Positions 964-48,568 of a stretch of DNA of 64,000 nt are shown here, piece after piece; within the stretch, counting starts at the first letter, position 1; each line of letters starts with the position of its first letter. The stretch is from Eubacteriales bacterium. GTDB lineage: Bacteria; Bacillota; Clostridia; Oscillospirales; CAG-272. The position numbers and the translations under genes were made by a program. A model generated the notes under the pieces. It saw only the letters and a list, made by a program, of their open reading frames with translations, searched no databases and had not been told where the DNA came from. The stretch is taken from NCBI GenBank assembly GCA_045535375.1, contig JAZSLM010000007.1:15322-79321 (forward strand), given 5' to 3'.

Positions 964-2034
964 ATGGAAAACAAACAAACCGACCTGCTCTCCCTCTATC
1001 CCGAGGAGCTGCAGGAGCTTATCGTATCGCTCGGCGAGCCGAAATACCGCGCGGGACAGATATTTCCCGCACTGCACAAGGGTCTGCGCCCGGGCGCGAT
1101 GACGAATATATCCAAGGCGACCGCCGAAAAGATCGAATCGGCTCTGCCCTCGCGTATGCCCGAGATCGAGCAAAAGCTCGTCTCAAAAGTGGACGGCACG
1201 GTGAAATACCTCTTCCGCCTGCACGACGGCGAGTGCATCGAATCGGTCGTGATGCGCTACAACCACGGCAACACCATCTGCGTTTCCTCGCAGGTCGGAT
1301 GCCGTATGGGTTGCGCCTTCTGTGCCTCCACCATCGGCGGCAAGATACGCGACCTCAGCGCGGGCGAGATCCTCGGCCAGGTGATCGTGGCATCCGCCGA
1401 CATGGGTGAGCGCATTTCAAACATAGTACTTATGGGAATCGGCGAGCCGATGGACAATTACGAGAACGTCCTGCGCTTCCTGTGCCTTGTCAACGACGAG
1501 CGCGGTATCTGCATCGGCTACCGCCACATCTCGCTTTCGACCTGCGGACACGTAGACGGTATCCGCAAGCTGATGCGCGAAGATCTTCCCATCACCCTTT
1601 CGATCTCCCTCCACGCCGCAGATGACGAGGTGAGGGACAGGATAATGCCGATCAACCACCGATGGAACGTCTCCGAGCTTCTCTCCGCCTGCCTTGACTG
1701 GTGGCGCGCGACGGGACGGCGCATTTCCTTCGAATACACCCTCATCGACTCTCAGAACTCCTCGCCCGCAGATGCCGCCCACCTTGCACAAGTGCTGAAC
1801 TCCGCGCTTCGCGGCAAACCCTCTCGCGGTGAGAAATTCCCGATACACGTCAATCTCATCCCCGTTAATCCCGTCAAGGAAACGGGACTGATGCCCCCAT
1901 CCCCCGAAAAGATCGAGGCATTCCGCGCGGCTCTTGAAAAGAAGGGCATACGCGCAACGGTGCGCCGCAAGCTCGGCCCCGACATCAACGCTTCCTGCGG
2001 ACAGCTCAGACGACAGCATAAAGAAGAAAAATAA
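964..2034 (+). CDS. rlmN: 23S rRNA/tRNA (adenine-C2)-methyltransferase RlmN, radical SAM
   Basis: 356 aa with a CRMGCAFC radical-SAM cluster motif and a C-terminal CGQL motif. Position in the conserved operon fits. Confidence 0.9.
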   Translation: MENKQTDLLSLYPEELQELIVSLGEPKYRAGQIFPALHKGLRPGAMTNISKATAEKIESALPSRMPEIEQKLVSKVDGTVKYLFRLHDGECIESVVMRYNHGNTICVSSQVGCRMGCAFCASTIGGKIRDLSAGEILGQVIVASADMGERISNIVLMGIGEPMDNYENVLRFLCLVNDERGICIGYRHISLSTCGHVDGIRKLMREDLPITLSISLHAADDEVRDRIMPINHRWNVSELLSACLDWWRATGRRISFEYTLIDSQNSSPADAAHLAQVLNSALRGKPSRGEKFPIHVNLIPVNPVKETGLMPPSPEKIEAFRAALEKKGIRATVRRKLGPDINASCGQLRRQHKEEK

Positions 2035-2079
2035 GTCATTCAAACCAAGATCATTTTAACACGGTAGAAAGGTGTTCTC

Positions 2080-2853
2080 ATGAAATTTTACGGAAAGACC
2101 GACGTCGGCGTTCGACGCACAGAAAATCAGGATTGCTTCGGTATCTACGAGATCCTCCCCGGTGTCACTCTGCTTGCAGTTTGCGACGGTATGGGAGGAG
2201 TGGCGGGAGGCGCGATAGCCTCCAGGATCGCACTCGATACCTTTGCTCAGTCGATGCGCGAGCATATTCTGCCCGACAATCCCGAGGACGAGCCCGACCT
2301 TGGCAGTATAGGTCTGCGATTTGCTCTCTCGGCTTCGGCATCCGAGGCTAACCGCGCCGTTTACAAGGAAGCACGCGACTCGGACGGCAAGTACGACGAT
2401 ATGGGCACCACGCTCGTTGCGCTTCTTGTGGTTGAGAACACGCTTGCATATTCGCTGAACATCGGCGACAGCCGTATGTACGATATCTCGGACGGCAAGA
2501 TCACACAGCTGACGAAGGATCACTCCTATGTCCAGCAGCTTGTGGATATGGGTCAGCTTACATACGAGGAAGCCAAGACCTCGCCGATGAGAAACATCAT
2601 CACCCGCGCGGTCGGAATCGACGGCGACGTTGTTGCGGATATTCATTCCCTCAGCCCCGCCCCCGGCTTCCCCGATGCGCCTCGCTACCTCCTTCTCTGC
2701 TCGGACGGTCTTTGCGGTGTCGTAAGCGACGAGGAGATCGCTGAGATAGTCTGCTCCGAGGGTGAGCTGAACGAAAAGACCGAAAGGCTCGTTGCCGCCG
2801 CAAACAACGCGGGCGGTCCCGACAACATCACGGTGGTTATCGCCGAACTCTGA
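2080..2853 (+). CDS. stp: PP2C-family Ser/Thr phosphatase (Stp/PrpC)
   Basis: 257 aa with the AVCDGMGG and LLCSDGL metal-binding motifs. It lies immediately upstream of the PASTA kinase. Confidence 0.88.
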   Translation: MKFYGKTDVGVRRTENQDCFGIYEILPGVTLLAVCDGMGGVAGGAIASRIALDTFAQSMREHILPDNPEDEPDLGSIGLRFALSASASEANRAVYKEARDSDGKYDDMGTTLVALLVVENTLAYSLNIGDSRMYDISDGKITQLTKDHSYVQQLVDMGQLTYEEAKTSPMRNIITRAVGIDGDVVADIHSLSPAPGFPDAPRYLLLCSDGLCGVVSDEEIAEIVCSEGELNEKTERLVAAANNAGGPDNITVVIAEL

Positions 2854-2878
2854 AAATAACGGATAACAATTATAAATT

Positions 2879-5221
2879 ATGGAAAAGAACCTATCATACA
2901 AAGCTCTGGTCGGCACAACGCTCGACTCGAGATATAAAATAGAAAAATTCCTCGGAACCGGCGGAATGAGTGTCGTCTTCAAAGCGACCGATCTGAAAGA
3001 CGGTTCCCCGGTTGCGATAAAAATGCTTCGCGACGACGTTGCGGACGACCGCGAATCGCTCGAGATATTCACGAACGAGTCAAAGGTCGTTTCGATGCTT
3101 TCGCACCCCAACATCGTATCCATCCGCGCGGTATCCTTCAAGACCGAGAAGAAATATCTCGTCATGGAATATATCGACGGAATCTCTCTGCGAACCTATA
3201 TGGACAAGCGCGGTGCGCTTGATTTTGACGAATTCATCTCATTCTCGGAGCAGATCCTTGCCGCGCTTGAGCACGCGCACAGCCGCGGTGTCGTTCACCG
3301 CGACATCAAGCCGCAGAATATTCTCGTCCTTAAGGACGGTTTTATCAAGGTAACCGACTTCGGTATCGCAAAGGTGCCCGAGAAAAACAAGGGCAAAACG
3401 ATCTCCGATAACGCGATCGGCACCGTTTACTACATCAGCCCCGAGCAGGCGGCGGCGAAGTCGACAGACTCGCGCTCCGACCTTTACTCCTTCGGCGTTA
3501 TGATGTACGAAATGGCAACGGGCAAGCTCCCCTTCGACGACGAGCGCCCCATTTCGGTGCTTATGATGCAGATACACGACAAACCCCTGCCCCCGAGAAA
3601 GATCAACAGATCGATTCCCCGCGGGCTTGAGCAGTTGATACTCACCTGCATGGAAAAGGACCCTCGCCGACGTTATCAGACGGCGAAGGACATCTTCGTT
3701 CAGATACGCAGACTCGGACAGAATCCCCTCGCCGCAGTTCCTTCCCCGAAGCAGATGGCTGCCAACGCGCGCTCACATAAAAACCGCAAGGAAAGACCTC
3801 CGAGCCGCTCTTTCTTCCCCATCGCTCTCGGAATTGCCTGCGCAGTTTGCTTTGTCGGCCTCGTTTCGGTCTTTTACGGACTTGACGCGCTTGATTTCGG
3901 TGCTCCCGGCACCTCAAGCCTTAAGGTCCCCGACAGCGTCGGAGTAGCATACAGCGAAGAGCTTATAGAAGAGCTCGGTTTCAACGAGGAGGATTATATC
4001 GTCACCGTTGAATATCTGACCTCAAACACAGTAGAAAAAGGCACGGTCATCTCGCAGAAGCCGTCCGCAGGCGCTCGCAGAAAATCACCGTGTCACGTGA
4101 CGATCTCCGTCAGCCTCGGCCCCGAGCTTGTCACGTTCGGCGACTATCTTATGATGAACTGGCGCATAGCGCAGACAAAACTCCGTTCCGAGGGTTACGC
4201 GGTAAACATCATCCGTGAGGAAAACGCCGCGATCCCGGAGGGATACGTATACGCTACCGTACCGATGCCGGGTGAAAAGATCGAGCCCGGAAGCATGATC
4301 ACCGTCTACGTCAGCGCGGGAACCGAGCAGGTACTCGTTACTCTGCCCGAATTCGTCGGTATGAGCGAGCGCGAGGCAAAAACTTTCCTCGACGAGAACG
4401 CGCTTCTTGTCGGAGAGGTGACCTATACGCGCTCTCCCAAGAAAGCGGGAACTATCATTGCGACTTCGCACCAGGCGGGAACGGGTGCATACGCATACAC
4501 GACCGCGATAGACTTTACCGTAAGCGGCGGCAGCGGCTTTGCGCTGAACGTCTGCCCCGACGTTGTGGGAAAAGAAGTCGGTCCCTCAAAGAGCGAACTT
4601 GAAGGCTACGGCGTTCAGGTAACTCTTATCACGCTCAGGGACGAAGCCCCCGAAGGAACAGTTCTTATCCAGTCCCCGAGCGCGGAGGAAGCCGTTGCGA
4701 CCAATGCAGACTCCGTCACCCTGACGGTCAGCGGCGGTCCTACATACTCGCGCACAGTCAATATGGTGAATCTCGCGGGACAGTCGCTGAACGCTGCGCG
4801 CGCGATCCTCGACTATATGTTCGAGGGTGTCTGCGAATACAAGCTGAACGTGACCTATACCATGAGCCTCAGACCCAAGGATACCATCCTCTCGCATACT
4901 CCCGGTGCGGGTCAGATCGAGCTGACCACGGGTGTTCTTGAGATCAACCTCGTTCTCAGCGGCGGAACAAATTATACTCCGCCCGTCGTCAGCGTTATCG
5001 TGCCCGACGTGCTCGGCATGACTCTTGCCGAAGCCGAAGCGCGTCTGCTCTCCGCAGGCATCGTTGTCGGCGGTGTAAGCTATGTCCAAAGCTATTCTCC
5101 CGCGGGAACCGTCATCCTTCAGTCAACCGAAGCGGGACAGTTCATCACGGGACCGCAGGGCTGGATAACGATCGACCTTGTGATCAGCGAGGGCTTCGGA
5201 TCAACCGATATACCTCAATAA
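2879..5221 (+). CDS. pknB: Ser/Thr protein kinase with one TM segment and about six PASTA-like repeats (PknB/PrkC)
   Basis: Hanks kinase motifs are present: HRDIKPQNIL, DFGIA and YISPEQ. A TM helix (FFPIALGIACAVCFVGLVSVF) follows, then repeated PASTA-like units of about 65 aa. Confidence 0.9.
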   Translation: MEKNLSYKALVGTTLDSRYKIEKFLGTGGMSVVFKATDLKDGSPVAIKMLRDDVADDRESLEIFTNESKVVSMLSHPNIVSIRAVSFKTEKKYLVMEYIDGISLRTYMDKRGALDFDEFISFSEQILAALEHAHSRGVVHRDIKPQNILVLKDGFIKVTDFGIAKVPEKNKGKTISDNAIGTVYYISPEQAAAKSTDSRSDLYSFGVMMYEMATGKLPFDDERPISVLMMQIHDKPLPPRKINRSIPRGLEQLILTCMEKDPRRRYQTAKDIFVQIRRLGQNPLAAVPSPKQMAANARSHKNRKERPPSRSFFPIALGIACAVCFVGLVSVFYGLDALDFGAPGTSSLKVPDSVGVAYSEELIEELGFNEEDYIVTVEYLTSNTVEKGTVISQKPSAGARRKSPCHVTISVSLGPELVTFGDYLMMNWRIAQTKLRSEGYAVNIIREENAAIPEGYVYATVPMPGEKIEPGSMITVYVSAGTEQVLVTLPEFVGMSEREAKTFLDENALLVGEVTYTRSPKKAGTIIATSHQAGTGAYAYTTAIDFTVSGGSGFALNVCPDVVGKEVGPSKSELEGYGVQVTLITLRDEAPEGTVLIQSPSAEEAVATNADSVTLTVSGGPTYSRTVNMVNLAGQSLNAARAILDYMFEGVCEYKLNVTYTMSLRPKDTILSHTPGAGQIELTTGVLEINLVLSGGTNYTPPVVSVIVPDVLGMTLAEAEARLLSAGIVVGGVSYVQSYSPAGTVILQSTEAGQFITGPQGWITIDLVISEGFGSTDIPQ

Positions 5222-5252
5222 ATCTTATATAATAAAAAGGAAAGCAAAATTT

Positions 5253-6707
5253 ATGCCGAACTTTCAGAAAATCAAGGAAGCCATCAAACAGACCGACAGA
5301 AAAAAGTTAATACGGATCTCTGTTGCGGCAGTTTTTGTACTGCTTCTTTTGACAATGCTTCCCGCGGCAATGCCGGATACCGGCGAAAGTCTGACACTTC
5401 CGCCCTTCTCCTTCGACGACGAGATGCCCGAACTTGACGGCATCGCGGTCCCGAAACTTTTCCCCCATCTCGTTCTGGTCTATCCCGAAGCCGAAAGCTG
5501 GGGCGAGGAGCTGGCGGTACATATCAAAGCTGAGCTGCAAAGCCGTTTCCATGCGCATTTCGTCATTCTTTCCGACGGGGAGTATCTCGCGTTGGATGAA
5601 GATACGCTCGCGCTTTACAATGCGGATCCGACCTTGACTGTCAACCTTGGAATCACTGATCTTCTTGACGCCTCGTATCTGCAAATTCTTTCGCGCCTTG
5701 GCACCGAAGGACTCGAGATCGTCCGCGGCGGCAACCGCATCGACATTCTGGCGGCATCTTACACAAAGGTCAAAGAAGGAGTAAGCGCCTTCATTGATGC
5801 TTTGGAATACCGCAGCGGTTACGTCATCTCCGAGGAGCTTTACCGTTTCGATCTCCAACCCTCGGAGGAGAGCGCATACGCACCCGAGATCGTGACTGAT
5901 TCGTCGGTAAATATACTCACCTTCTCACATATCGACTCGAATTCCTATACTCTCCGCGCGCTTGAAGGCATCATTGCGGACGCAAAGCCCGATCTCGTTG
6001 TTTTCAACGGCGGCGTTGAAGGCGGAACAAAGAACCGTCAGGAGCTGACCGCGCTCTGGCAGAGCATTTCGGATATTCTGGCAAAGACTTCGACTCCCTG
6101 GTGCTTCACACCGGGTGAGCTTTCGGGCGATATCCCGCGCGTGACGGTCTGTGAGGTCATTTCCTCCTTCCCCGGATGCATCAAAAAGGTCACGGACGGA
6201 GCTTCCTATTCGATAACCGTCGGAAATCCGCAGGGTATCGTTACCGCAAGCATCTACGTTGCCGACGTATACGCCTCCACGAACGAGCTTTGCTCTTTGA
6301 TAGAGGCTGAAACCAAGCTTTTTGCCCGCGCATCCGATTACAAGCGTTCGGTCACCGCAATTCTGCCCGCGCCCTCAAAACAGATCGCGACCTCCGCTGA
6401 AGGCATCGAAAGCAAGTACGTATCCTCTGCCCTTTCCGACGTTTGCGACTCGCTGATGATCGCGGGAGCCGACACCTTTATCTGCGCGGCTGATCCCACG
6501 TCGCCCGCGCTTATAAGCTGTTCTGTTGGTAACGTTGCGCTCTGCGGCTCGATCGGTTTTGATCAGCTTGGCATCGGCGGAAGATTTGAATACAACCATT
6601 CCCTGCGCGGAGGAGTACTTCTGACGCTCGACTGCCGCCGTGCGGGATATACCGAAGCGGCAATTTCCTACGTTTACGCCGCCGCTCTCGGACTTACGGA
6701 GAGATGA
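5253..6707 (+). CDS. N-terminally anchored extracytoplasmic protein of unknown function (degenerate metallophosphoesterase-like C-terminal half)
   Basis: 484 aa with an N-terminal TM segment (ISVAAVFVLLLLTMLPAA). The stretch FSHID...DLVVFNGG...FTPGE resembles calcineurin-like phosphoesterase motifs I-III, but with substituted metal ligands. The gene is inserted between pknB and rsgA. Confidence 0.55.
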   Translation: MPNFQKIKEAIKQTDRKKLIRISVAAVFVLLLLTMLPAAMPDTGESLTLPPFSFDDEMPELDGIAVPKLFPHLVLVYPEAESWGEELAVHIKAELQSRFHAHFVILSDGEYLALDEDTLALYNADPTLTVNLGITDLLDASYLQILSRLGTEGLEIVRGGNRIDILAASYTKVKEGVSAFIDALEYRSGYVISEELYRFDLQPSEESAYAPEIVTDSSVNILTFSHIDSNSYTLRALEGIIADAKPDLVVFNGGVEGGTKNRQELTALWQSISDILAKTSTPWCFTPGELSGDIPRVTVCEVISSFPGCIKKVTDGASYSITVGNPQGIVTASIYVADVYASTNELCSLIEAETKLFARASDYKRSVTAILPAPSKQIATSAEGIESKYVSSALSDVCDSLMIAGADTFICAADPTSPALISCSVGNVALCGSIGFDQLGIGGRFEYNHSLRGGVLLTLDCRRAGYTEAAISYVYAAALGLTER

Positions 6708-8651: not shown

Positions 8652-8674
8652 TTTGTAAAAATTATAAGCCACGT

Positions 8675-9035
8675 GCTAACAAAACGTTCTGGGTGTCCCC
8701 TCATCACCCGCTGCGGCGGGAGCTTCTCCCAGGAGAAGCCTTGGGAACTCAGTTCGTGCGTACATTGCGAATAAAGTTGAAGTTGTAATTAAAATGATAT
8801 TCGCTATGTGAATCATATATGCTTCGTGTATGATATATTTCGCCAGGGACGAAATAGAAGGTAGAGGTTTGCTAAAGCAAATTTCAATTTATTAAAAAAC
8901 ACCATTACTTTTTCGGGATCAAATAATACGAAATACAGAAAATTCAAAACACAGTTGACAGTAACTTAAGGCTTCTCCTGGGAGAAGCTCCCGCCGCAGC
9001 GGGTGATGAGGGGACACCCAGAACGCTTTGTTCGC
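8675..9035. repeat. 361-bp element: 68-nt near-perfect terminal inverted repeats (8675-8742 and 8968-9035) flanking a 225-bp AT-rich core with no ORF
   Basis: The reverse complement of the right arm matches the left arm with 2 mismatches in 68 nt. Each arm holds internal hairpins (cccgc-tgcg-gcggg and cttctcc-ca-ggagaag). The core has TATGATATAT words plus small hairpins. Confidence 0.85.
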
Positions 9036-9087
9036 ACTCGCTTTTTGATAAAAATTTTCTATTTGACCATAATTCAGGAGATAAAAA

Positions 9088-11022
9088 ATGCTCGGAACAG
9101 AATTTCTTCCCATCACGCGCGCCGAAATGGAGGCGCGCGGGTGGGACAGACCCGATTTTGTATATATCACGGGGGATGCTTACGTCGATCATCCCTCTTT
9201 TGGCGTTGCCATCATCTCGCGCGTGCTTGAGGCGGCGGGATACCGCGTTGCTATCCTTGCACAGCCGAACTGGAAGACACTTGATGACGTCAAGCGTTTC
9301 GGCAAGCCGAGGCTAGGATTCCTCGTCACCGCGGGCAACGTTGACTCGATGGTATCGCACTACTCGGTCACCCGCCACCGCAGAGGATACGACTATTATT
9401 CCCCCGGCGGAAAGACGGGTCTGCGCCCCGACCGCGCGACTATCGTTTACTCGAACCTCATAAGACAGGCTTACGGCGACGTGCCGATAATCCTTGGAGG
9501 TCTTGAAGCCTCGCTTCGCCGCTTCGCCCACTACGATTATTGGGAGGACCGCATGCGCCGCTCGATGCTCATCGACAGCCGCGCAGATATTCTGACCTAC
9601 GGAATGGGTGAAAACATTCTCCTGCGCATAGCAGAACTTCTCGACAAAGGCGTGCCCGTCAAAAAGATCCGCGACGTGAGAGGCACCTGCTATCTCTGCC
9701 CCGCGGACAAGCTCGAGGTCCACTATCCCGTTGCCACGGAGCTTGACTGGGAAGAGCTCAAAGAGGGCGGACGCGCATATGCCGAGGCTTTCGGCGCGCA
9801 GTACCGCGAGCAGGACGCCATAGGCGGCAGAGCCATAATCGAGCACTACGGCGACAAGCTCCTCGTTCAGAATCCCCCGATGCCTCCGCTTGAAAGAAAA
9901 GAGCTTGACCGCGTTTACGCGCTTCCCTACACCCGAAAAGTCCATCCCGTTTACGACAAGGACGGCGGCGTGCCCGCGATCGCGGAGGTAGCATTCTCGA
10001 TAACGCACAACCGCGGATGCTTCGGTGCTTGCAACTTCTGCGCGCTTGCGTTCCATCAGGGACGAAGCGTGAGAAGCCGTTCGAAGGAAAGCGTTCTTGC
10101 CGAGGCGCGTGATATCGTCAAAATGCCCGATTTCAAGGGTTACATCCACGACGTTGGCGGCCCCACGGCAAATTTCCGCGCGCCCGCGTGCGACAAACAG
10201 CTTCAGCACGGCGTTTGCCCCAACCGCAAGTGCCTCGCCCCGAAGCCCTGCCCCAATCTCAAGGTCGATCACAAGGAATATTACGATCTGATCGAATCGG
10301 TTGAGAAAATTCCGGGCATCAAGAAGGTATTCATCCGCTCGGGAATCAGATTCGACTACCTTATGGCGGACCCCGACGATTCCTTCTTCCGCAAGCTCGT
10401 CCGCGACAACGTTTCGGGACAGCTAAAGGTCGCGCCCGAGCATTGCTCGGCAGGAGTTCTCGCCTATATGGGCAAGCCCGATTTCTCGGTCTATCGCCGT
10501 TTCCGCGAGAAATTCTTTGATCTTTGCCGCGCGTGCGGTAAGGAGCAGTACCTCGTTCCCTACCTTATGTCCAGCCACCCCGGCTCGACTCTGCACGACG
10601 CGATCGCCCTTGCGCTCTACTTAAAGCGCGAAAACCTCTCGCCCGAGCAGGTTCAGGATTTTTACCCCACCCCCGGCACGGCTTCGACCGTAATGTTCGC
10701 AACGGGAATCGATCCCTTCACGGGCAAAAAGGTCTACGTCGCCCGCGACCCGCGCGAAAAGAAGCTTCAGCGCGCGCTTCTGCAGTACGGCAAGCCCGAA
10801 AACGCTCCCTTCGTACGCGAGGCACTCATAGCCGCGCACCGCGAAGACCTCATTGGCACGGGCAAGGATTGCCTCGTCCGCCCCGAGAACACTTTCAAGC
10901 CTCAGGGTAAGAATCAAAATCAGCGCAATCAGAAAAATTCCCACCCGCAGAAAACCGCGAAAGGCTCAAAGCCCGCGGGAAACGGACAAAGGAATAACAA
11001 AAACAATAAGAAAAAAAGATAA
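9088..11022 (+). CDS. ygiQ: YgiQ-family radical SAM protein (UPF0313)
   Basis: 644 aa. The N-terminus FLPITRAEMEARGWDRPDFVYITGDAYVDHPSFG is typical of YgiQ. A CFGACNFC cluster motif and a Lys/Asn-rich tail are present. Confidence 0.85.
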   Translation: MLGTEFLPITRAEMEARGWDRPDFVYITGDAYVDHPSFGVAIISRVLEAAGYRVAILAQPNWKTLDDVKRFGKPRLGFLVTAGNVDSMVSHYSVTRHRRGYDYYSPGGKTGLRPDRATIVYSNLIRQAYGDVPIILGGLEASLRRFAHYDYWEDRMRRSMLIDSRADILTYGMGENILLRIAELLDKGVPVKKIRDVRGTCYLCPADKLEVHYPVATELDWEELKEGGRAYAEAFGAQYREQDAIGGRAIIEHYGDKLLVQNPPMPPLERKELDRVYALPYTRKVHPVYDKDGGVPAIAEVAFSITHNRGCFGACNFCALAFHQGRSVRSRSKESVLAEARDIVKMPDFKGYIHDVGGPTANFRAPACDKQLQHGVCPNRKCLAPKPCPNLKVDHKEYYDLIESVEKIPGIKKVFIRSGIRFDYLMADPDDSFFRKLVRDNVSGQLKVAPEHCSAGVLAYMGKPDFSVYRRFREKFFDLCRACGKEQYLVPYLMSSHPGSTLHDAIALALYLKRENLSPEQVQDFYPTPGTASTVMFATGIDPFTGKKVYVARDPREKKLQRALLQYGKPENAPFVREALIAAHREDLIGTGKDCLVRPENTFKPQGKNQNQRNQKNSHPQKTAKGSKPAGNGQRNNKNNKKKR

Positions 11023-15143: not shown

Positions 15144-15218
15144 GGCCCATTGGTCAAGCGGTCAAGACGCTAGCCTCTCACGCTGGAAACTCGGGTTCGA
15201 TTCCCGGATGGGTCACCA
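15144..15218 (+). tRNA. tRNA-Glu (anticodon CUC), CCA encoded
   Basis: Hand-folded. Acceptor stem GGCCCAT/ATGGGTC. D-arm TGGTCAAGCGGTCAAGAC as in Firmicute tRNA-Glu. Anticodon stem CTAGC/GCTGG with loop CTCTCAC. T-arm TCGGG-TTCGATT-CCCGG. Ends in ACCA. Confidence 0.85.
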
Positions 15219-15220
15219 AT

Positions 15221-15258
15221 AAGAAAAGCACGACGCACAGCGTCGTGCTTTTCTTATT
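15221..15258 (+). terminator. Rho-independent terminator after the tRNA
   Basis: aagaaaagcacgacgc-acag-gcgtcgtgcttttctt, a perfect 16-bp stem followed by a T-rich tail. Confidence 0.8.
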
Positions 15259-15363
15259 GCTGAATTCAATGGAATCAGAACCCCGTGTAGTTGCGCTTGC
15301 GCAACTACACAAAACGTGCGGCGCACCTGTTTTCAGTTTAGCACAAATCAAATCCGCACGTGG

Positions 15364-15430
15364 GGGTTCAGATTCCCGGATGGGTCACCAAAAAAGAAAA
15401 ATCCGAACTCCGTTCGGATTTTTCTTTTTA
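15364..15430 (+). repeat. Duplicated tRNA-Glu 3' end (27 nt, one inserted base) plus a second terminator-like hairpin; no 5' half
   Basis: gggttcAgattcccggatgggtcacca matches tRNA positions 15192-15218. It is followed by aagaaaaatccgaac-tcc-gttcggatttttctt, which has the same AAGAAAA/TTTTCTT frame as the first terminator but a different stem core. Confidence 0.8.
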
Positions 15431-15432
15431 TT

Positions 15433-15600
15433 CAAGCCGCAGGCTTGGTATATCATCACGCGCAAGCGTGTATATCATCGCCGAAGGCGTATATCATCAC
15501 GCGTCTGCGTGTATCCCCTGCGGATTGATGATATACAATGCTGCGCATTGATGATATACCGCAACAGGTTGCGAATGATATACACGCCTTCGGCGTGATC
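15433..15600. repeat. Mirrored array of short GC hairpins punctuated by the word TATATCATC (3 forward copies, 3 reverse)
   Basis: Forward TATATCATC at 15449, 15471 and 15490. Reverse (G)ATGATATA at 15527, 15550 and 15575. Each copy adjoins a different 4-6 bp GC stem, for example cacgc-gcaa-gcgtg, cgcc-gaa-ggcg, caatgc-tgc-gcattg, cacgcc-ttc-ggcgtg. Confidence 0.8.
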
Positions 15601-15650
15601 AGGATGCGAGAGATTGCGTTTGCGGCCTTCTGCATGACTAAAATAAAACA

Positions 15651-15676
15651 ATAGCCCCGCGCGAAGCGGGGCTGCA
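15651..15676 (-). terminator. Terminator of the minus-strand corrinoid operon
   Basis: agccccgc-gcgaa-gcggggct, followed on the minus strand by attgttttatttt. Confidence 0.75.
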
Positions 15677-15681
15677 TTCAT

Positions 15682-17187
15682 TTATACCTCCTCAAACATC
15701 ATCCCCATCATAAAGTACTCGGAGAAGACTTTGTTGGTCGATAGTTCGAGTGTTTCTGCTTTTTCCGCCAGACCGCGCGCTTTTTCGCTCATATTCGCAT
15801 TGAGCAGGAGCATCGACGCGCCTTCGAGGGCGGCGTTGCCGACGGTTTCCGAATTTTTTGCAAGAGAGGTCGGCAAGAGTCCGATCTTTGCGGCGCTTTT
15901 TTTATTGAGATAATTTCCGAATCCGCCTGCGATATAAAGGATCGGAACGTCCTCGGGTTCGATGCCCGCGCTTTCGGTGAGGGTAAGAAGTCCCGCGCAG
16001 ATCGCGCTTTTGGCAAGCTGGAGCATTCGGATGTCCTGCGCGGTGACAGAAACGCCGTCGCAAAGCGTGAAGGGATCTTCGTCAAGTGCGCCTGTCTCAT
16101 CGATAATTTCGCAGTCGAGCATGCAAGCCGCGGCATCGACGAGTCCGCTTCCGCAGATTCCGATCGCTTTGCCTCCGCCGATGACGTGCGGATAGGGCTC
16201 GCCGTTGAGCAGGACCACTTTATCGATCGCACCGGCGGCGCCTCGCATACCCATCGAGATACCAACGCCCTCGAAAGCGGGGCCGGCGGCAGTTGAACAG
16301 ACGGTAAGTTTTCCTCCGTGCCGGATCGCCATCTCGCCGTTCGTTCCGATATCGACGAGCATTGCCATTTCACCGTCGCAAAGCCCCGTGGAAATCAAGG
16401 CGCAAACGGTATCCGCGCCGACAAAAGCCGAGATACAAGGCGGCAGATAAACCGCGGTTTCGGGGGAAAGGCTCGAAAGATCGAGCGCCTTCGCCGTCAA
16501 CGTTTCGCCAAACAGCCTTTTTGCCTCGAAAGGTGCGTGCGAGAAAGGCTCAACCGATTCGACGGTCAGCAGCGAAAGCATTACGGTGTTGCCGGTAACG
16601 GCAACGGCATCAATATTCTTTGAATCAATTTTTGCTTTTGAAGCAAGCTCCACGAGGATTTCATCCAGAGCCTTACGGATCGAATCGGCAAGCTCCTCGT
16701 CTTTTCCGCCGAGGGCGGCTTCTATTCGCGAAATGACGTCGGCACCAAACTCCGACTGTGGATTGAGGCGCGAAGACGTGGCAAGAATATTACCTTTTGC
16801 ATCGTAAAGCCTTGCCGCCAGAGTGGTGGTGCCGATATCTATCGCGGCGCCGTACTGCACAAAGATCGGGTTCAGATCAAACCCGATCCGCTTTCCTGCG
16901 GTAACTATCTGCGCATCCGAATCGGATGCGACGTTCTTCACCTCGGCATCACCCTCGGCGAAGGTACAGCAAGAAAGACGTATGCCTGCGGCAAGCTCTT
17001 CGTTTGTCAAAAGTTCGCGCTCGGCGGCGCTCGGCGGGGAAAGTTTGCCCTTTGCCCACACCTTGCATTTTCCGCATTTGCCGTGGCCGCCGCAGGGCTT
17101 TTCGCCCGCGATGATCTCGGAAAGTGCGGCACCGGCGAGGGCTCTGCGCTCCTCGCCGTTTACGATAACTTTAATATAATCACTCAT
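15682..17187 (-). CDS. Corrinoid activation/regeneration protein (RACo/AcsV-like): N-terminal 2Fe-2S ferredoxin domain plus ASKHA ATPase domain
   Basis: 501 aa. The plant-type ferredoxin motif CGGHGKCGKCKV...LSCC is followed by a DUF4445/ASKHA-like body (DIGTTT...VDIGTNGE). Confidence 0.75.
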   Translation of the reverse strand: MSDYIKVIVNGEERRALAGAALSEIIAGEKPCGGHGKCGKCKVWAKGKLSPPSAAERELLTNEELAAGIRLSCCTFAEGDAEVKNVASDSDAQIVTAGKRIGFDLNPIFVQYGAAIDIGTTTLAARLYDAKGNILATSSRLNPQSEFGADVISRIEAALGGKDEELADSIRKALDEILVELASKAKIDSKNIDAVAVTGNTVMLSLLTVESVEPFSHAPFEAKRLFGETLTAKALDLSSLSPETAVYLPPCISAFVGADTVCALISTGLCDGEMAMLVDIGTNGEMAIRHGGKLTVCSTAAGPAFEGVGISMGMRGAAGAIDKVVLLNGEPYPHVIGGGKAIGICGSGLVDAAACMLDCEIIDETGALDEDPFTLCDGVSVTAQDIRMLQLAKSAICAGLLTLTESAGIEPEDVPILYIAGGFGNYLNKKSAAKIGLLPTSLAKNSETVGNAALEGASMLLLNANMSEKARGLAEKAETLELSTNKVFSEYFMMGMMFEEV

Positions 17188-30701: not shown

Positions 30702-30766
30702 AAATTATAATAATCTGTTACCTGCGCGGGAGACTTTTCGTCTTATAGGATGAAGGAGGAATGACG

Positions 30767-31324
30767 ATGGACGACAAAAGAATAATTGAACTCTTTTTTG
30801 CCCGCGACGAGCGCGCCCTTCGCGAGGTAACGAAAAAGTACGGCAAACTTTGCATGCATATTGCCGAAAACTTCCTTTCCAGCCGCGAGGACCGCGAGGA
30901 ATGTCAGAGCGACGTTCTGCTCGAGCTGTGGAATCGCATTCCGCCGGAAGAACCCAACGATCTGCGGGCATACGTCGCCGCGATAATCCGGAGTCGCGCG
31001 ATAGATAAGCTCCGCCGTGATTCCGCGGGAAAGCGCGGCGGAAACGTGCTCATCGTCAGCGACGAACTGATTTCCGACCTCGCTGACGGCACCTCTCTTG
31101 CGGAAGAATACGAATCGACACGCGCGGGCGAGGTCATAAACAAGTTCCTCGACTCGCAACAAAAGTGTGAACGCGCAGTCTTCATCATGCGCTATTACCT
31201 AATGGAGAGCATCAAGGACATCTCCGCCCGCACGGGATTTTCCGAGGGTAAGATCAAGATGATGCTGATGAGAATGCGCCGCAGACTTGAAGAAGATTTA
31301 AGAAAGGAAGGAATACTGCTTTGA
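30767..31324 (+). CDS. ECF-type sigma-70-family factor (module 1)
   Basis: About 185 aa with only region 2 (REDREECQSDVLLELWNRIPPEEP) and region 4 (ERAVFIMRYY...ISARTGFSEGKIKMMLMRMRRRL). The start is MDDKRII, with GAAGGAGG 7 nt upstream; the track start at 30761 is too close to the SD. Confidence 0.8.
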   Translation: MDDKRIIELFFARDERALREVTKKYGKLCMHIAENFLSSREDREECQSDVLLELWNRIPPEEPNDLRAYVAAIIRSRAIDKLRRDSAGKRGGNVLIVSDELISDLADGTSLAEEYESTRAGEVINKFLDSQQKCERAVFIMRYYLMESIKDISARTGFSEGKIKMMLMRMRRRLEEDLRKEGILL

Positions 31325-35520: not shown

Positions 35521-37026
35521 TTATTCAAATTTGACTGCGGGGATAAAATCGATCTCTCCCGTTTTGAGGTTGAGGGCGGCAAAGCCGCTGTCGAGGATCC
35601 TTGTCTCGTATTTTGAAGCCTTTCTCAGATAGCCGATGATATGGTCACCCACACGGCGGTAAGGAATAAAGTCGATATTTTCTCCTTCGAAAACAAGGGC
35701 TTGGTTCCCGCCGCGGGCATCGGTGAGGTAGAATTGCATCTCCACCTTGCAATTGAGTTTGATCTCGGTTTCGCTTTTCAGCTTCGAGATCTTGTCGGGG
35801 TCGGTCACGTTCGGATAGTTCTTCGCGATATAGGCGTCGGGGTCCTTTTTGTAGGAGTTATATTCCTCTATACGCGAAGTTGTGGTGAATCCTAGCTCTC
35901 CCGAATCCAGATAAACGTATTGGATACTGCCGAAATCGATCGTTGATACCGAATCTGTCGCAAGATCATAAGCAAGCACGGTGCTGTTTTCGCCGGCACC
36001 GTATGCAATCGTTCCGCAGACAAACAAGGGAACAAAATTGAAGTTCGCCATCTTTCTGTAATTCTCGCCCGAATAGTCGCAGGACCAGATCTCGGAATCA
36101 TAATGTATCTCAACGAACGGATCTTTACTGAAAAAGAAGCGCTTGTTGGTCACGCCGACAAGATACATCTTTGCAGGGATGTCAACCATCTTTTCGGTCG
36201 TGTCTGTCGCGGGATCGTAGCAGACAATATAATCGCGGCGCGTTCCCATGGTGAGTCCTGCGTCCGATACACTCAAATACACCTTTCCGTCCATAGCAAA
36301 AGCGGCTTCGGGAGTCGGGTGGACACTATCGTCCTGGTTCTTTTCCGCAATCACTCTCTTCTCGCCGGTCTTCATGTTGTAAAGGCATACCTTTGTGCTT
36401 CCGGAATCTTCATCGGCAGCTTGAGTGCTCGATATCTGATACATACACCAATAGTCAAAAACGGTGATGGAGTCAATAAGCCACCCTACGGGTATGAAAG
36501 CGGGGCAGCTTTCGTCCGTATGCTTACAGGCAGAGTCGATGCAAAGACTCGTGCTCGTTTTTGCCACGGGATCGTATTTATAAAGATATTCGAAAAATTC
36601 CATCTTTGTTCCCGTGAGGTTTTTGTATGCCGCTGATTTGTGAATCCAACACCCATCATATTCAACGCCGAGGAAGTAGGAGGGATAGGACAAAAATCCC
36701 TCTCCTGCCGTAAAATATTCCTCGGGCAGGTTATTATTTTCGGGCGGTTCGTTCGTTTCAAGAACATTCGATTCGTTCGCGGTGCCCGCGGGATTGAAAA
36801 GCTCGGGGATGAGCCCGACGAGCCTTCCCGCAAGCGGGATCGCCGCGCCGAGAAGCAAGAGGCAGGCGGCAAGCAGCGCGACCTGCTTGATGATCTTTTT
36901 CTTATTTGCGCCGCGCTCATGGACTCCTTCCGCGCGCGGCTTGATCCTTTTTGCGGCGGATTCGATGTATTTGTCATCAATATGATCGATCGCGCCGATC
37001 AATCGCTTGTCGTTTTTGTTTTTCAT
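35521..37026 (-). CDS. Single-pass membrane protein: putative anti-sigma N-domain, TM segment, propeller-like ectodomain (module 2)
   Basis: 501 aa. The N-terminus is MKNKNDKRLIGAIDHIDDKYIESAAKRIKP. The TM segment is VALLAACLLLLGAAIPLAG. The start overlaps the sigma stop by 4 nt. Confidence 0.75.
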   Translation of the reverse strand: MKNKNDKRLIGAIDHIDDKYIESAAKRIKPRAEGVHERGANKKKIIKQVALLAACLLLLGAAIPLAGRLVGLIPELFNPAGTANESNVLETNEPPENNNLPEEYFTAGEGFLSYPSYFLGVEYDGCWIHKSAAYKNLTGTKMEFFEYLYKYDPVAKTSTSLCIDSACKHTDESCPAFIPVGWLIDSITVFDYWCMYQISSTQAADEDSGSTKVCLYNMKTGEKRVIAEKNQDDSVHPTPEAAFAMDGKVYLSVSDAGLTMGTRRDYIVCYDPATDTTEKMVDIPAKMYLVGVTNKRFFFSKDPFVEIHYDSEIWSCDYSGENYRKMANFNFVPLFVCGTIAYGAGENSTVLAYDLATDSVSTIDFGSIQYVYLDSGELGFTTTSRIEEYNSYKKDPDAYIAKNYPNVTDPDKISKLKSETEIKLNCKVEMQFYLTDARGGNQALVFEGENIDFIPYRRVGDHIIGYLRKASKYETRILDSGFAALNLKTGEIDFIPAVKFE

Positions 37027-37580
37027 ACCAAAATACCCTCCTTTTGAAGTTTTTCCGCAAATTTGCGGCGTGTGCGGAAAAGGATCGTTTTCACTTTTCC
37101 CTCGCTGAATCCCATATCGGCGGCGACGTGAGCGACCTTTTCGCCGAAATAGTGGTGCAGGACGAAGACGTCGCGCTCGTGCTCGGGCAGGCTTTCAAGA
37201 AGCTCGTTGAGTATCTCGCCCGCGCGGGCGGTTTCGAACTGCGCGATAAGGTCATAGGTGTCGGGGATCGATGCGACAAATTCCTCGCCGATCTCGGTGA
37301 AGCTCTTGCACCTGCGCCATACGTTTTCCGAGCGCGTTTTCTTCATGGCGAGGTTGCGCACGATCTTTGCAATATAGGCTTTCAGATTCTGCGGTCTTTC
37401 GGGCGGAATGTTGTTCCAGAGCGCCAGAAGAAGATCGTTGAGGCATTCCTCGCGGTCCTCGCGCAAGGAAAGAATATTCGACGCGACCGTGTGGCAAAAG
37501 TTCCCGTACTTCGCCTGCGTTTCCTCAAGCGCCTTTTCATCACGCTCAAAAAGCATTTCGATTATCTTCTCATCTTGCAT
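37023..37580 (-). CDS. ECF-type sigma-70-family factor (module 2)
   Basis: 185 aa from MQDEKIIEMLFERDE, with AGGAGG 8 nt upstream. The track start at 37622 is a GTG inside the conserved leader motif. Confidence 0.8.
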   Translation of the reverse strand: MQDEKIIEMLFERDEKALEETQAKYGNFCHTVASNILSLREDREECLNDLLLALWNNIPPERPQNLKAYIAKIVRNLAMKKTRSENVWRRCKSFTEIGEEFVASIPDTYDLIAQFETARAGEILNELLESLPEHERDVFVLHHYFGEKVAHVAADMGFSEGKVKTILFRTRRKFAEKLQKEGILV

Positions 37581-37730
37581 CAGCTTCGCCTCCTTGTCAG
37601 TTTTTTCAAAGGGTCCCTTCACCTATCAAGTACCACCAAGGTGTATTTGGGTTTCAATCTTTTCGACAATTTTCAAAATTTTGTGGACTTGCACAAAGTG
37701 CCAAGCCTTATTTTGTGCAACTTCACAAAT

Positions 37731-42685: not shown

Positions 42686-43239
42686 ACGATGATCCCCTCC
42701 TTTCCGAGTCTGTCCGCAAGCCGCTGGCGCGTGCGCATCAAGAGCGACTTAACCTTGCTTACCGAAAAATCCATATCCTCGGCGACTGCACTCACGCTTT
42801 CGCCGAAATAATAGCGGAGGACGAAGACCTGACGCTCGTGTGCGGGGAGCGAGGCGAGGAAATCGTTGATGATCTCGCCCGCGCGGGCAGCCTCAAACTG
42901 CTCGGCGAGGTCGGCGGTGTCGGGAATCGTTTCAAGAAACTCGTCCCCCACCGTCAAAAAGCTTGCGCATCTCTTCCAGGTGCTCATTGCCCTCGTTTTG
43001 TTATAAGCTATGTTGCGAACTATTCTTGAAATGTATGATCTCAGACTTTCGGGTCGCTCGGGCGGGATCGCGTTCCAGAGCGCAAGCAGCACGTCGTTGA
43101 CGCACTCCTCGCGGTCCTCGCGGATAGCAAGGATATTCGCCGCGACCGTGTGGCAAAACGCCGAATATTTCTTCTCGATCTCGCCAAGCGCCGCTTCGTC
43201 GCGCTCAAAAAGCATCTCGATGATTTTTTCGTCAGTCAT
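42682..43239 (-). CDS. ECF-type sigma-70-family factor (module 3)
   Basis: 185 aa, MTDEKIIEMLFERDEAAL..., roughly 60% identical by eye to the module 2 sigma. Confidence 0.85.
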   Translation of the reverse strand: MTDEKIIEMLFERDEAALGEIEKKYSAFCHTVAANILAIREDREECVNDVLLALWNAIPPERPESLRSYISRIVRNIAYNKTRAMSTWKRCASFLTVGDEFLETIPDTADLAEQFEAARAGEIINDFLASLPAHERQVFVLRYYFGESVSAVAEDMDFSVSKVKSLLMRTRQRLADRLGKEGIIV

Positions 43240-45652: not shown

Positions 45653-47512
45653 ATGAAGAGAATTGCCGAAAGATTTGCAGAAAAAAGCTATGACTTCATC
45701 GTTGTCGGCGGCGGAATGTCGGGAGTTTGTGCCGCTATTGAGGCAGCTCGCTCGGGTGCGAGAACCGCGCTCATCCACGCTCGTCCCGTTCTCGGCGGCA
45801 ATGCATCGAGCGAGATCAGAGTACACATTTCGGGCGCCGATCACGGTATGGAGAAGCCCGACTACGCCGAAAGCGGTCTGCTTTACGAGCTGATGCTCGA
45901 AAATAAGGCGCGGAACGAGCATTTTTCCTACTCGATCTGGGATATGATCCTCTTTGAGGCGGCAAAAAACACCGAAAATCTCACCGTTTACTATAACACC
46001 GTCCTCTACGACTGCGAGACCGAGGGCGACCGCATCACCGCCGCGCTCTGCGTTCAGGAGACGACCGAGATGCGATACCGTCTGACAGCGCCCCTCTTCG
46101 CCGACTGCACGGGCAACGGCACGCTCGGCTACTACGCGGGTGCGGAATACCGCCAAGGAAGCGAATCAAAGGCTGAAACCGGCGAGATCGACGCCCCCGA
46201 GGTAGGAAACAACGAGCGAATGGGCAACACCATCTACTTCCGCGCTCGGAATATGGGGCATCCCGTCAAGTTTACGCCTCCGTCCTTTGCCAAAAAATAC
46301 ACCGAACACGATCTGCGATTCCGCATGCACTGCGCGAACCACAAGGTCGATTACTCGGGCTGCAAGGACCCCGAAAAGAACGAGGCTTGCGGCGGAGTTT
46401 CGGCTCGCGGAGTCGATTACGGCTACTTCTGGATCGAGCTGATGGGCGACAAGGACGACATCATCACCGATTACGAAAACATCCGCGACGAGCTTGTCGC
46501 GTCGCTTTACGGCGTCTGGGATCACATCAAGAACGGCGGCGACCACGGCGCGGAGAATCACGAGCTTGAATGGGTCGGAATGCTCCCCGGCACGCGCGAA
46601 TCGCGCAGGCTTATGGGTGATTATATCCTCGACGAAACCGATATTCTTGAAAACCGTATTTTTGACGATGCAGTCGCCTACGGCGGTTGGTGCGTCGATC
46701 TTCATTGCCCGCACGGTCTGCTCGACACCGACATCATGCCCTCGGGCGACTGCCGCTTCTACGACGGCGTTTACACGATCCCCTACCGCTGTTACTACTC
46801 GAAAAACATTGAAAACCTCTTTATGGCGGGCAGAAATATATCCGCGACCAAGCTCGGAATGTGTTCGACGCGCATTATCGGCTGCTGCGCGATCGGCGGA
46901 CAGGCTGTCGGCGCGGCTGCCGCGCTCTGCACGAAATACTCCTGCGACCCGCGCGGACTCGCTCCCCATATTTCCGAGCTCCAACAGCTTCTTCTCCGCC
47001 GCGACTGCTTTATTCCCGGATTCAAGAATGAAGACGGGCTCGATCTCGCAAGAGATGCAAAATTTACCGCGACCTCGCAGAAAGAAAACTGCGAGCCCGC
47101 GAAAGTCACCGACGGCATCTCTCGCCGACTTGGCGAGGACTCGCACGGCTGGGTCTCCGACGGAATCCGCGAGAGCGGCGAGGTGCTTACGATGTCGTTT
47201 GACTCGGCAAAAGCTCTTTCCGAGATCGCGCTGACCTTTGAGTCGGATTTCAACTACCCCATCCGCGTGACGATGGCGCCGAACCGCCAGGTTCAGCAGC
47301 GCCCCGGCGTCCCTGCCGAGCTTGTCAAGGATTATGATATCGTTTTCAAGAAGGACGGCGAGCGCGTAAAGACTATCGAAATTCGCGATAATCATCAAAG
47401 ACATAACGTACATAAATTTGACTCTACCGAGTGCGATAGCGTCGAGTTCCGCATTTATTCGACCAACGGCGCGAAGGATATTACGATTTTTGAGGTAAGA
47501 GCTTACGAATAA
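45653..47512 (+). CDS. FAD-dependent oxidoreductase (pfam12831-like) with a C-terminal discoidin/F5-8-type-C-like domain
   Basis: The start is MKRIAERF, with GGAGG 9 nt upstream. The dinucleotide-binding motif is DFIVVGGGMSGVCAAIEAARSG. The C-terminal beta-sandwich-like segment ends ...ITIFEVRAYE. Confidence 0.75.
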   Translation: MKRIAERFAEKSYDFIVVGGGMSGVCAAIEAARSGARTALIHARPVLGGNASSEIRVHISGADHGMEKPDYAESGLLYELMLENKARNEHFSYSIWDMILFEAAKNTENLTVYYNTVLYDCETEGDRITAALCVQETTEMRYRLTAPLFADCTGNGTLGYYAGAEYRQGSESKAETGEIDAPEVGNNERMGNTIYFRARNMGHPVKFTPPSFAKKYTEHDLRFRMHCANHKVDYSGCKDPEKNEACGGVSARGVDYGYFWIELMGDKDDIITDYENIRDELVASLYGVWDHIKNGGDHGAENHELEWVGMLPGTRESRRLMGDYILDETDILENRIFDDAVAYGGWCVDLHCPHGLLDTDIMPSGDCRFYDGVYTIPYRCYYSKNIENLFMAGRNISATKLGMCSTRIIGCCAIGGQAVGAAAALCTKYSCDPRGLAPHISELQQLLLRRDCFIPGFKNEDGLDLARDAKFTATSQKENCEPAKVTDGISRRLGEDSHGWVSDGIRESGEVLTMSFDSAKALSEIALTFESDFNYPIRVTMAPNRQVQQRPGVPAELVKDYDIVFKKDGERVKTIEIRDNHQRHNVHKFDSTECDSVEFRIYSTNGAKDITIFEVRAYE

Positions 47513-47595
47513 CACAGCGAAAAGTTTTGATCAAACTTTTTCAGAAAAGTGTGTTTGCCTTCGGCAAACGGCGGAGTATGAGGCAGAGCCTCATT

Positions 47596-48539: not shown

Positions 48540-48568
48540 CTTTATTTAGAACGACAAATAAAAGATTC

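Follow-up and report, generated by a model that had tools for sequence, protein, structure and literature searches.

A tRNA-Glu gene (tRNA, transfer RNA) of a gut member of the Oscillospirales (Eubacteriales bacterium, assembly GCA_045535375.1, contig JAZSLM010000007.1) is followed by a mirrored array of short conserved words that alternate with hairpins. The array occupies positions 15433 to 15599 of the 64,000 nt stretch of DNA analysed here, referred to as the window, and is placed between two convergent transcription units in an ordinary chromosomal context. In it, a GC-rich hairpin and the word GTATATCATC occur together three times on the plus strand and then three times on the minus strand. 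This mirrored array is a real feature and no artefact. It is an orphan copy, in a divergent 'GTATATCATC dialect' of the Gut-1 family (Rfam RF01706), of a modular element that is widespread in Oscillospirales gut bacteria.

The mirrored array in the window

The exact 9-mer TATATCATC is present five times, at 15449, 15471 and 15490 on the plus strand and at 15527 and 15550 on the minus strand; shuffles give 0.33 copies, and none of them reached five. The complete word is 10 nt, GTATATCATC, with plus-strand starts at 15448, 15470 and 15489. Its complement, GATGATATAC, is found at 15527 and 15550 and, with one mismatch, as the sixth word, AATGATATAC, at 15574 to 15583. All of the spacers are filled by GC-rich hairpins that run from end to end (15433–47, 15458–69, 15480–88, 15499–510, 15537–49, 15560–73 and 15584–96), with stems of 3–6 bp and loops of 2–4 nt. 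The first-pass annotation, made from the letters of the window alone, described three forward units followed by three reverse units in convergent order, and the sequence agrees. Its units of a word beside a hairpin are likewise real, although the word that it gave as 9 nt is 10 nt long, and its statement that the stems all differ is nearly right, except that three of them share ACGC(C)...(G)GCGT. The array is made up of the following parts, read from the sequence and the word positions.

15433 to 15447, plus strand: first hairpin, H1, CAAGCC-GCA-GGCTTG; the ATT(C) that precedes it corresponds to the ATCC of other copies.
15448 to 15514, plus strand: half-array 1, in which the word reads GTATATCATC; W1 (15448–57), hairpin (15458–69), W2 (15470–79), hairpin (15480–88), W3 (15489–98), hairpin (15499–510).
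15515 to 15526, plus strand: centre segment, CCCCTGCGGATT, the reverse complement of the H1 5′ arm and loop with one mismatch.
15527 to 15599, minus strand: half-array 2, the mirror image, in which GTATATCATC is read on the minus strand; W′1 (15527–36), hairpin (15537–49), W′2 (15550–59), hairpin (15560–73), W′3 (15574–83), hairpin (15584–96), GAT (15597–99).

Since the centre segment is an inverted copy of the 5′ arm and loop of H1, an inverted repeat encloses half-array 1, which is closed by a partial word, GTAT, at 15511–14 and has the loops GCAA, GAA and GTCT on the plus strand. H1 types recur between loci and co-vary with the centre segment. The terminal hairpin with (T)TGAT is also conserved, and in other loci it forms or comes before the −35 box of an outward promoter. 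With repeats of 10 nt, spacers that are hairpins of 9–21 nt, and a mirrored orientation, the array does not have the make-up of a CRISPR locus, in which direct repeats of about 24–48 nt alternate with unique, non-palindromic spacers in a single orientation.

Distribution, word conservation and hairpins

Genomes, one per species, were scanned for GTATATCATC-N8-16-GTATATCATC, and the loci found were labelled Lnnn. The pattern was present at no fewer than 120 species-representative loci (at least 120, compared with about 10 expected by chance, by our own estimate). Among the listed loci, almost all are in Clostridia, in metagenome-assembled genomes (MAGs) of gut Oscillospiraceae or Acutalibacteraceae (Oscillospirales). 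The '+++---' form, of about 150 bp, accounts for 39 of the listed loci, along with many near variants, and the '---+++' form for none of them. One-directional arrays of up to 12 units, with tandemly duplicated units, are also present. Viral contigs gave 33 pattern matches, all of them unrelated tandem repeats except L149; with this single true viral copy, a phage feature was ruled out.

Each position of the 10 nt word is 81–99 % conserved, positions 2 and 5 being the tolerant ones. Of 240 distinct spacers, 209 are hairpins, compared with 10.9 on average, and 19 at most, in shuffles. Hairpins at the same position are related between loci and carry compensatory changes (for example AATTCC-TGC-GGAATT and AATTTC-TAT-GAAATT), and some are swapped outright. 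This fits the core reading of the first-pass annotation, in which a fixed word stands beside any hairpin, the opposite of the arrangement in repetitive extragenic palindromic (REP) sequences.

The hairpins are not symmetrical with respect to strand. On the strand that reads GTATATCATC at the words, 173 of the 209 hairpins close with a C-G pair. On this same strand, G..A loops number 95 (56 triloops and 39 tetraloops) and T..C loops 4, and stem mismatches are G·T or T·G in 21 cases and A·C or C·A in 4. Other dialects of the word, although a small sample, point in the same direction, with five wobbles and none of the opposite kind. Strand-asymmetric closing pairs, loops and mismatches are a signature of single-strand selection, which acts on the top strand in the left part of the element and on the bottom strand in its right part. 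C(GNA)G triloops are commoner than GNRA tetraloops, which suits DNA mini-hairpins more than RNA, although this is only suggestive.

The stable-RNA address and the complete module

When the loci are compared, a fixed order is apparent: the 3′ end of a stable-RNA gene with its CCA, a bidirectional terminator, half-array 1 within the inverted repeat, the mirrored half-array 2, an outward sigma-70-type promoter and, often, a gene of the PF05635 family. None of this framing, neither the tRNA 3′ end, the terminator and the promoter nor the asymmetry of the two ends, was in the first-pass annotation. The left end is constant, consisting of an A-run, a variable hairpin, T7, ATCC and H1. The string 'CCA + A-run + variable hairpin + T7 + ATCC' is present in 61 oriented elements, and the A-run mostly abuts the CCA that ends a tRNA gene or tRNA 3′ fragment. 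An intact tRNA gene was identified by ARAGORN within 120 nt of the array in 47 of 138 arrays, representing 14 isotypes, and the distance from the tRNA end to the first word is 50–65 nt in all but one of these 47. In about 12 further loci, including the window, an insert of 170–350 nt comes after the tRNA, and the 3′ end of the tRNA then recurs as a direct repeat ahead of the terminator and array. Inserts of this kind are seen in L012, L015, L028, L042, L044, L063, L073, L075, L082 and L110, and several of them share the CAGTCCGGGGGACTG hairpin; they look like a family of miniature insertions or attL/attR remnants.

The complementarity between H1 and the centre is also a property of the elements at large, the longest complement averaging 9.2 nt over 64 elements, compared with 5.7 (maximum 6.6) when the partners are permuted. 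At the right end, the last hairpin and (T)TGAT pass in many loci into a −35 box, TTGATT-N17-TATAAT. In a variant that includes the window, TTCTTGAA-N17-TATAAT lies about 25 nt beyond the (T)TGAT end. Of 53 downstream genes whose direction could be scored, 44 point away from the array.

Several other roles for these sequences were considered and rejected. Inversion of the segment between H1 and the centre would turn '+++---' into '------', yet the unidirectional arrays lack the predicted junction and the repeats are just 9–12 bp. The word is not a −10 element (TATCAT), as the would-be −11 A is among the two least conserved positions (A 0.88, C 0.10). By eye, the word is a poor fit to DnaA, Fur and NrdR boxes, to dif and Chi, and to the nick-site consensus of rolling-circle replication.

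The window locus and its orthologues

The array in the window is flanked by the following features.

15144 to 15218, plus strand: tRNA-Glu(CUC) gene with encoded CCA, identified by ARAGORN and scoring 59.6 bits with the Rfam tRNA model; L154 and L155 have the same tRNA.
15219 to 15257, plus strand: intrinsic terminator, AAGAAAAGCACGACG-CACA-CGTCGTGCTTTTCTT, directly after the tRNA, read from the sequence; L155 has the same arrangement.
15258 to 15392, plus strand: structured unit of about 135 nt between the tRNA and the module, ending in a direct repeat of the tRNA-Glu 3′ end and outside the array proper.
15391 to 15429, no strand assigned: bidirectional intrinsic terminator that opens the module, with an A-run, the hairpin ATCCGAAC-TCC-GTTCGGAT and a T-run.
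15600 to 15618, plus strand: leader/promoter remnant of 19 nt, CAGGATGCGAGAGATTGCG, from alignment by eye with L044, L050, L093 and L109.
15640 to 15676, minus strand: intrinsic terminator of the convergent RACo-like gene, read from the sequence; it is the right border of the intergenic region, outside the element.
15682 to 17187, minus strand: RACo-type corrinoid-activation gene (Pfam RACo_C_ter and Raco_middle).

On the left side, the window has the arrangement that is typical of the module, as the copy of the tRNA-Glu 3′ end (GGGGGTTCAGATTCCCGGATGGGTCACCA, 15362–15390, with its tail recurring at +172) is followed by the bidirectional terminator, which directly abuts the CCA of this copy. 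On the right side, the outward promoter and the PF05635 gene are missing and the 19 nt leader remnant is all that is present; in other loci, the same leader runs on into TTCTTGAA-N17-TATAAT and a PF05635 gene, and in the window it is cut off. A tblastn search for a PF05635 gene in the window found none. In L154 (RACo 82 % identical), tRNA-Glu and its terminator are followed by the array, then by a PF05635 gene and a helix-turn-helix gene, and finally by RACo, whereas in L155 (RACo 74 % identical) the array is absent and three of the units of about 135 nt follow the tRNA. With 19 nt of leader left in the window and the gene still present in the L154 orthologue, the partner gene of the window and its promoter have been deleted, and the array is an orphan copy.

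The unit of about 135 nt has a fold z-score of −5.2, and the 3′ strand of its long closing stem copies the T-arm and acceptor end of tRNA-Glu. In L155 it is present in triple tandem (5566–6032), with compensatory changes in the inner hairpin. The unit could be a tRNA-derived RNA that is so far unannotated, or what is left of an integrative element.

The partner protein

The genes downstream of the arrays are diverse, except for one cluster encoding proteins of about 115 amino acids, and the genes that are bracketed by two arrays are ordinary and diverse as well. A regulon of shared function was rejected on account of this diversity outside the one cluster. The clustered proteins belong to PF05635 ('23S rRNA-intervening sequence protein', 67–94 bits, compared with a cut-off of 33.8) and TIGR02436 ('four helix bundle protein', 74–78 bits, cut-off 24). 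Their closest solved structure is PDB 2RLD (E = 1.6e-15), which was deposited with five chains. Among the listed loci, the PF05635 gene is directly behind about 17 of 120 canonical arrays.

The association was also found when the search was made from the protein side. An alignment of the partner proteins led to 80 metagenome homologue loci (39–88 % identity), of which 65 had upstream regions that were long enough for analysis. An 8-mer is repeated at least three times upstream in 57 of these 65, compared with 7 of 73 downstream controls, and in 52 of the 65 upstream regions repeated 8-mers are present in both orientations. In 39 of the 57, a tRNA on the same strand ends 218–415 nt upstream. 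The common layout of these loci is a terminator, half 1 closed by the inverted repeat, the mirrored half 2, a promoter, a ribosome-binding site and the gene.

PADLOC gave no match to the partner protein, and literature searches returned nothing on the function of PF05635/TIGR02436 outside diversity-generating retroelements (DGRs). Some of the PF05635-linked loci depart from the usual setting. In L216 (28–378) the array follows a transfer-messenger RNA (tmRNA) gene rather than a tRNA gene, and L009, in a MAG labelled Bacteroidaceae, has a PF05635 gene with TTCTTCACT words and GAA hairpins upstream. The Bacteroidaceae-labelled case is a hint that the module extends beyond Clostridia. In L227 (1109–1300), two tandem c-di-GMP-I (cyclic di-GMP) riboswitch aptamers lie downstream of the PF05635 gene and its array.

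Word dialects follow the protein clade

The word differs between clades of the protein. The dominant word in each protein cluster is AATATCACT (21/23), TATTTCAC (8–9/10), GATGATATAC (5/5) or GATTACATAC (4/4), and ACATCATT, CTTCATTA and CCTTCACT are further dialect words. In 993 pairs of loci, identical ones left out, word similarity rises with protein identity (Spearman rho 0.48), and none of 1000 permutations gave a value as high.

The L154 orthologue has the same hairpins as the window (ACGCGACAGCGT, GCCGTAGGC, CGCAACAAGTTGCG and ACGCCTACGGCGT), but its words are different (GYATGGMATC and GATTCCATAC) and its protein is of subtype 2, 63 % identical to the canonical protein. In L080, a second subtype-2 gene is behind GTATGTAATC/GATTACATAC arrays in a contig that also has a canonical array. 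In L047, a 47 %-identical protein is behind mirrored ATTATTCATT words. In both contigs, each of the two dialects is beside its own protein subtype. The switch of word at an orthologous locus and the co-resident dialects within one contig argue for real specificity. Orphan arrays of the AGTGATATT/AATATCACT dialect are also seen beside canonical GTATATCATC arrays in L016 (3480–3660), L055 (2290–2450) and L066 (3170–3330); with dialects mixed within contigs, one genome can hold several of them.

Relationship to Gut-1 and to other known systems

Gut-1 was described from human-gut metagenome sequence only, with no sequenced organism and no neighbouring gene named (Weinberg et al., 2010; PMC2864571). 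Its consensus, CAaUGAAAU-hairpin-GUGAAAU-hairpin-GUGAAAu-hairpin-gUGAAAU, has the same grammar and free stems, with the word GUGAAAU in place of GTATATCATC, and the window array likewise has at least three hairpins of variable sequence between copies of a conserved word. The RF01706 model scores above its gathering threshold of 50 bits, at 52–74 bits, on half 1 of eight arrays of other dialects that have the same genomic frame. Sub-threshold matches were limited to the two arrays of the window, half-array 1 at 24.4 bits (15445–15520, minus strand) and the sister array at 34.0 bits (E = 6e-5; 55892–55970, plus strand), so by score neither reaches Gut-1 membership. Published Gut-1 corresponds to one half-array on one strand and was published without context or function, whereas the present element has two mirrored halves and a closing inverted repeat, and is flanked at one end by a stable-RNA gene with its terminator and at the other by a promoter followed by a PF05635 gene.

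The sister array is the following feature.

55892 to 56215, no strand assigned: array of another dialect, with GCATATCGY/TATATCGTG words beside GC hairpins and halves in divergent order.

It is split by a separate structured motif (56070–56150) and is upstream of an extracytoplasmic function (ECF) sigma gene (55177–55743, minus strand). The first-pass annotation had pointed to a related, divergent array at 55.9–56.2 kb, and such an array is indeed present, with its sub-threshold Gut-1 match. Two suggestions made there for the pattern, a protein-binding array and a multi-hairpin RNA, are in line with the present findings, as the word co-varies with the adjacent protein gene and the array is related to Gut-1.

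Like REP sequences and bacterial interspersed mosaic elements (BIMEs), which are associated with REP-associated tyrosine transposases (RAYTs; TnpA-REP), the arrays are extragenic, near terminators and present in many copies, have hairpins beside a short conserved single-stranded tag in units of alternating orientation, and include copies beside a cognate gene and many orphans. In REP sequences, however, it is the imperfect palindrome that is conserved and the tag (GTAG/CGTC) is 4 nt, whereas here the stems differ within and between elements, the tag is 8–10 nt (10 nt in the window), and the arrays are tied to the flanks of stable-RNA genes. The NTS/SRM repeats and their Ssn GIY-YIG nucleases, in which an oriented conserved flank and hairpin are read on single-stranded DNA (ssDNA), flank a small single-domain protein gene and form lineage-specific protein–repeat pairs (PMC11893778). 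They are a precedent for such pairs, but NTS has a conserved hairpin core, a GIY-YIG partner, no tRNA linkage and no regular mirrored arrays.

DGR targets need a GC-rich hairpin with a stem sequence that varies from element to element and, on the sense strand, a GRNA loop, and DGRs encode a PF05635-type protein, Avd (PMC3240598). The free GC-rich stem, the G(R)NA loop on a defined strand and the PF05635-family four-helix bundle are thus common to both, whereas DGRs have a single hairpin downstream of the variable region, no repeated word and a requirement for a reverse transcriptase, an enzyme that is not seen here. This likeness is in grammar and protein family, and hairpin reading by Avd is putative. 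In TRAP, a homo-oligomer reads (G/U)AG triplets together across free-sequence spacers of 2–3 unstructured nt; this is a functional analogy only, with no homology, and both the PF05635 oligomer and its binding are putative here. Literature searches for GTATATCATC or GATGATATAC returned unrelated primers only, and those on Acutalibacteraceae or on repeats downstream of tRNA genes returned nothing relevant.

Interpretation and alternative explanations

It is highly likely that the element belongs to a Gut-1-related, PF05635-linked module. This takes in the anatomy, the conservation, the single-strand signature, the stable-RNA address, the outward promoter, the PF05635 adjacency in both search directions and the change of word with clade, all of which the loci display. 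In the proposed mechanism, the words of 8–10 nt would be the sites that the cognate four-helix-bundle protein, probably as an oligomer, specifically recognises. The GC hairpins, free in sequence, would be stable spacers by which several words are displayed together on one strand, either of RNA or of unwound or extruded DNA, and the mirrored halves would provide one such word platform for each strand. Bound at the last word, beside the −35 box, the protein could regulate the promoter of its own gene and also, where the array is an orphan, other promoters. Orphan arrays would be served in trans, and, as the words of the window are intact, its copy presumably still is. The probability of the whole statement, including recognition of the words by the protein, is put at roughly 0.55.

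A number of observations weigh against it. What points to recognition of the word by the protein is co-variation, to which shared descent of the linked gene and its upstream region partly contributes, and some 85 % of canonical arrays stand without a PF05635 gene beside them. The arrays extend from terminator to promoter, with no visible promoter upstream to transcribe them. The strand evidence is mixed, as the loops and mismatches favour the strand with the G..A loops, whereas the Rfam model is built on the opposite one, where an A-U and a G·U pair at the word ends lengthen each stem; moreover, an element contains halves of both orientations. How the halves are ordered also varies: the canonical and GATTACATAC dialects are convergent and most of the others divergent, which the model leaves unexplained. 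Finally, the W and W′ variants do not co-vary in any register, and pairing between the halves is therefore unsupported. A long hairpin or attC-like fold through W:W′ pairing, although predicted by minimum free energy, was rejected for this reason, and the co-varying R″/R′ and L″/L′ boxes of the folded strand in integron attC sites likewise have no counterpart in W and W′.

Four other explanations retain some weight. The arrays could be the recombination or attachment region of small cassettes at tRNA 3′ ends, with the words as arm or accessory sites of a recombinase and the four-helix-bundle protein as accessory factor or cargo. They always adjoin a tRNA 3′ end or a copy of one; in L023 and L049, the segment of terminator, array, promoter and cargo has the tRNA on one side and, downstream, a direct repeat of the tRNA 3′ end on the other; L042, L047 and L082 have tandem 'array-gene-array-gene' runs; and the array is present in the window and L154 and absent from the same site in L155. 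There is, however, no integrase beside the arrays, one word is found behind 14 tRNA isotypes, unlike the arm of a site-specific integrase, duplex arm sites fail to explain hairpin spacers with strand-specific loops, and the W:W′ pairing of a folded attC lacks co-variation. L039 has, at 1650–5650, a 4 kb element with a tyrosine integrase, an HUH-type Rep with a P-loop domain and an XRE/LexA-like repressor, beyond which is the 3′ half of tRNA-Pro with the array. This integrase/Rep element separates the tRNA from its displaced 3′ fragment and leaves the array on the host side, on which ground the arrays were rejected as part of an integrated element. The attachment-region explanation is considered unlikely. 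Slightly less probable is a REP/BIME- or NTS-like repeat that is the ssDNA substrate of a spreading nuclease or transposase (RAYT/Y1 HUH or GIY-YIG Ssn-type), along the lines of the first-pass annotation. The strand-specific hairpins have C(GNA)G and C(GNNA)G loops, which suit ssDNA mini-hairpins, copies are numerous within clades, with several in a single contig, and the mirrored doublets resemble REPINs. In Ssn/NTS, an oriented flank with a hairpin can be the site of an ssDNA nuclease (PMC11893778). Against this, a regular-expression scan of 2,589 open reading frame (ORF)-like stretches from 120 loci and the window found no Y1/IS200- or RAYT-type motif and no GIY-YIG match adjacent to an array (one weak GIY-YIG-pattern match is on the minus strand of the window, away from the arrays), and the recurrent neighbour is PF05635; the Y1/HUH/RAYT suggestion has no support in these loci. 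Moreover, the hairpin is conserved in REP and NTS and free here, and the copies are at one defined type of site, behind stable-RNA terminators, and not scattered.

About equally improbable is a free-standing structured non-coding RNA, Gut-1 as it is in Rfam, with the neighbouring protein gene as a frequent passenger. Gut-1 was rated a certain RNA on the basis of co-variation (Weinberg et al., PMC2864571), and the compensatory changes in the hairpins and folding z-scores of −5.4 and −6.8 agree with an RNA. Yet no promoter precedes the arrays, which start right behind a strong terminator and end at a promoter reading away, every element carries halves of both orientations, different protein clades go with different words, and GNA-type triloops exceed GNRA tetraloops. 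A protein-independent insulator, in which hairpins and AT-rich words back up two-way termination or absorb supercoils between a busy tRNA gene and the next promoter, would account for the constant position between terminator and promoter, the mirror symmetry, and GC hairpins flanked by AT-rich words. It is very unlikely, because the high conservation of a 10 nt word in many species, together with its concerted replacement in other clades, indicates a reader that is specific for sequence, the words have no U-tract, and the strict coupling of loop and word polarity is unneeded for cruciform extrusion.

Other repeats and genes in the window

The structured motif that splits the sister array is one of three copies of another conserved, apparently structured motif (47600–47680, 48620–48710 and 56070–56150; GGCGGTTTTCCGAAGGAAAATGGAGGCG...GCCGACAAG...GAGTCG), the outer stems of which co-vary. 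A search of 47480–49000, which contains copies of this motif, against Rfam gave no match at E values up to 0.1. The ECF sigma gene next to the sister array has paralogues in the window, the five ECF-type genes being at 30761–31324, 37023–37622, 42682–43239, 55177–55743 and 57952–58566, with a shared N-terminus (MDDKRIIELFFARDE...); some of them adjoin very large genes on the same strand (1627, 940 and 843 amino acids).

A 70 nt inverted repeat (97 % complementary; 8673–8742 and 8968–9037) surrounds an AT-rich core of 225 bp just upstream of a radical-SAM gene (9088–11022). A TGATATAT word beside a hairpin is present in this core, at 8.83 kb. The region from 8673 to 9037 may be an invertible promoter segment.

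Implications

Gut-1 has been in Rfam since 2010 with human-gut metagenomes as the sole remark. The present analysis places it in named lineages, the Oscillospirales and at least one MAG labelled Bacteroidaceae, as half of a larger mirrored element at a fixed address behind tRNA or tmRNA genes, linked to a protein whose sequence changes along with the word. A more general proposal, to which we give somewhat less than an even chance, is that PF05635 proteins are sequence-specific readers of short words set between free-sequence hairpins, and that protein and array together form a self-contained, fast co-evolving module in the 3′ flanks of stable-RNA genes, which seeds orphan arrays that bring other promoters under its control. 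If this is so, exchange of the words (GTATATCATC for GTATGGAATC, and the reverse) and of the proteins between dialects should exchange binding. There would then be a function for Gut-1, an orphan motif, and for a large family of orphan proteins, as well as a pointer to the reader of the GRNA hairpin at DGR targets. If the link holds, a conserved word beside any hairpin would represent a new modular form of nucleic-acid reading by a small protein, and two orphans, an Rfam motif and a protein family, are joined as one testable system.

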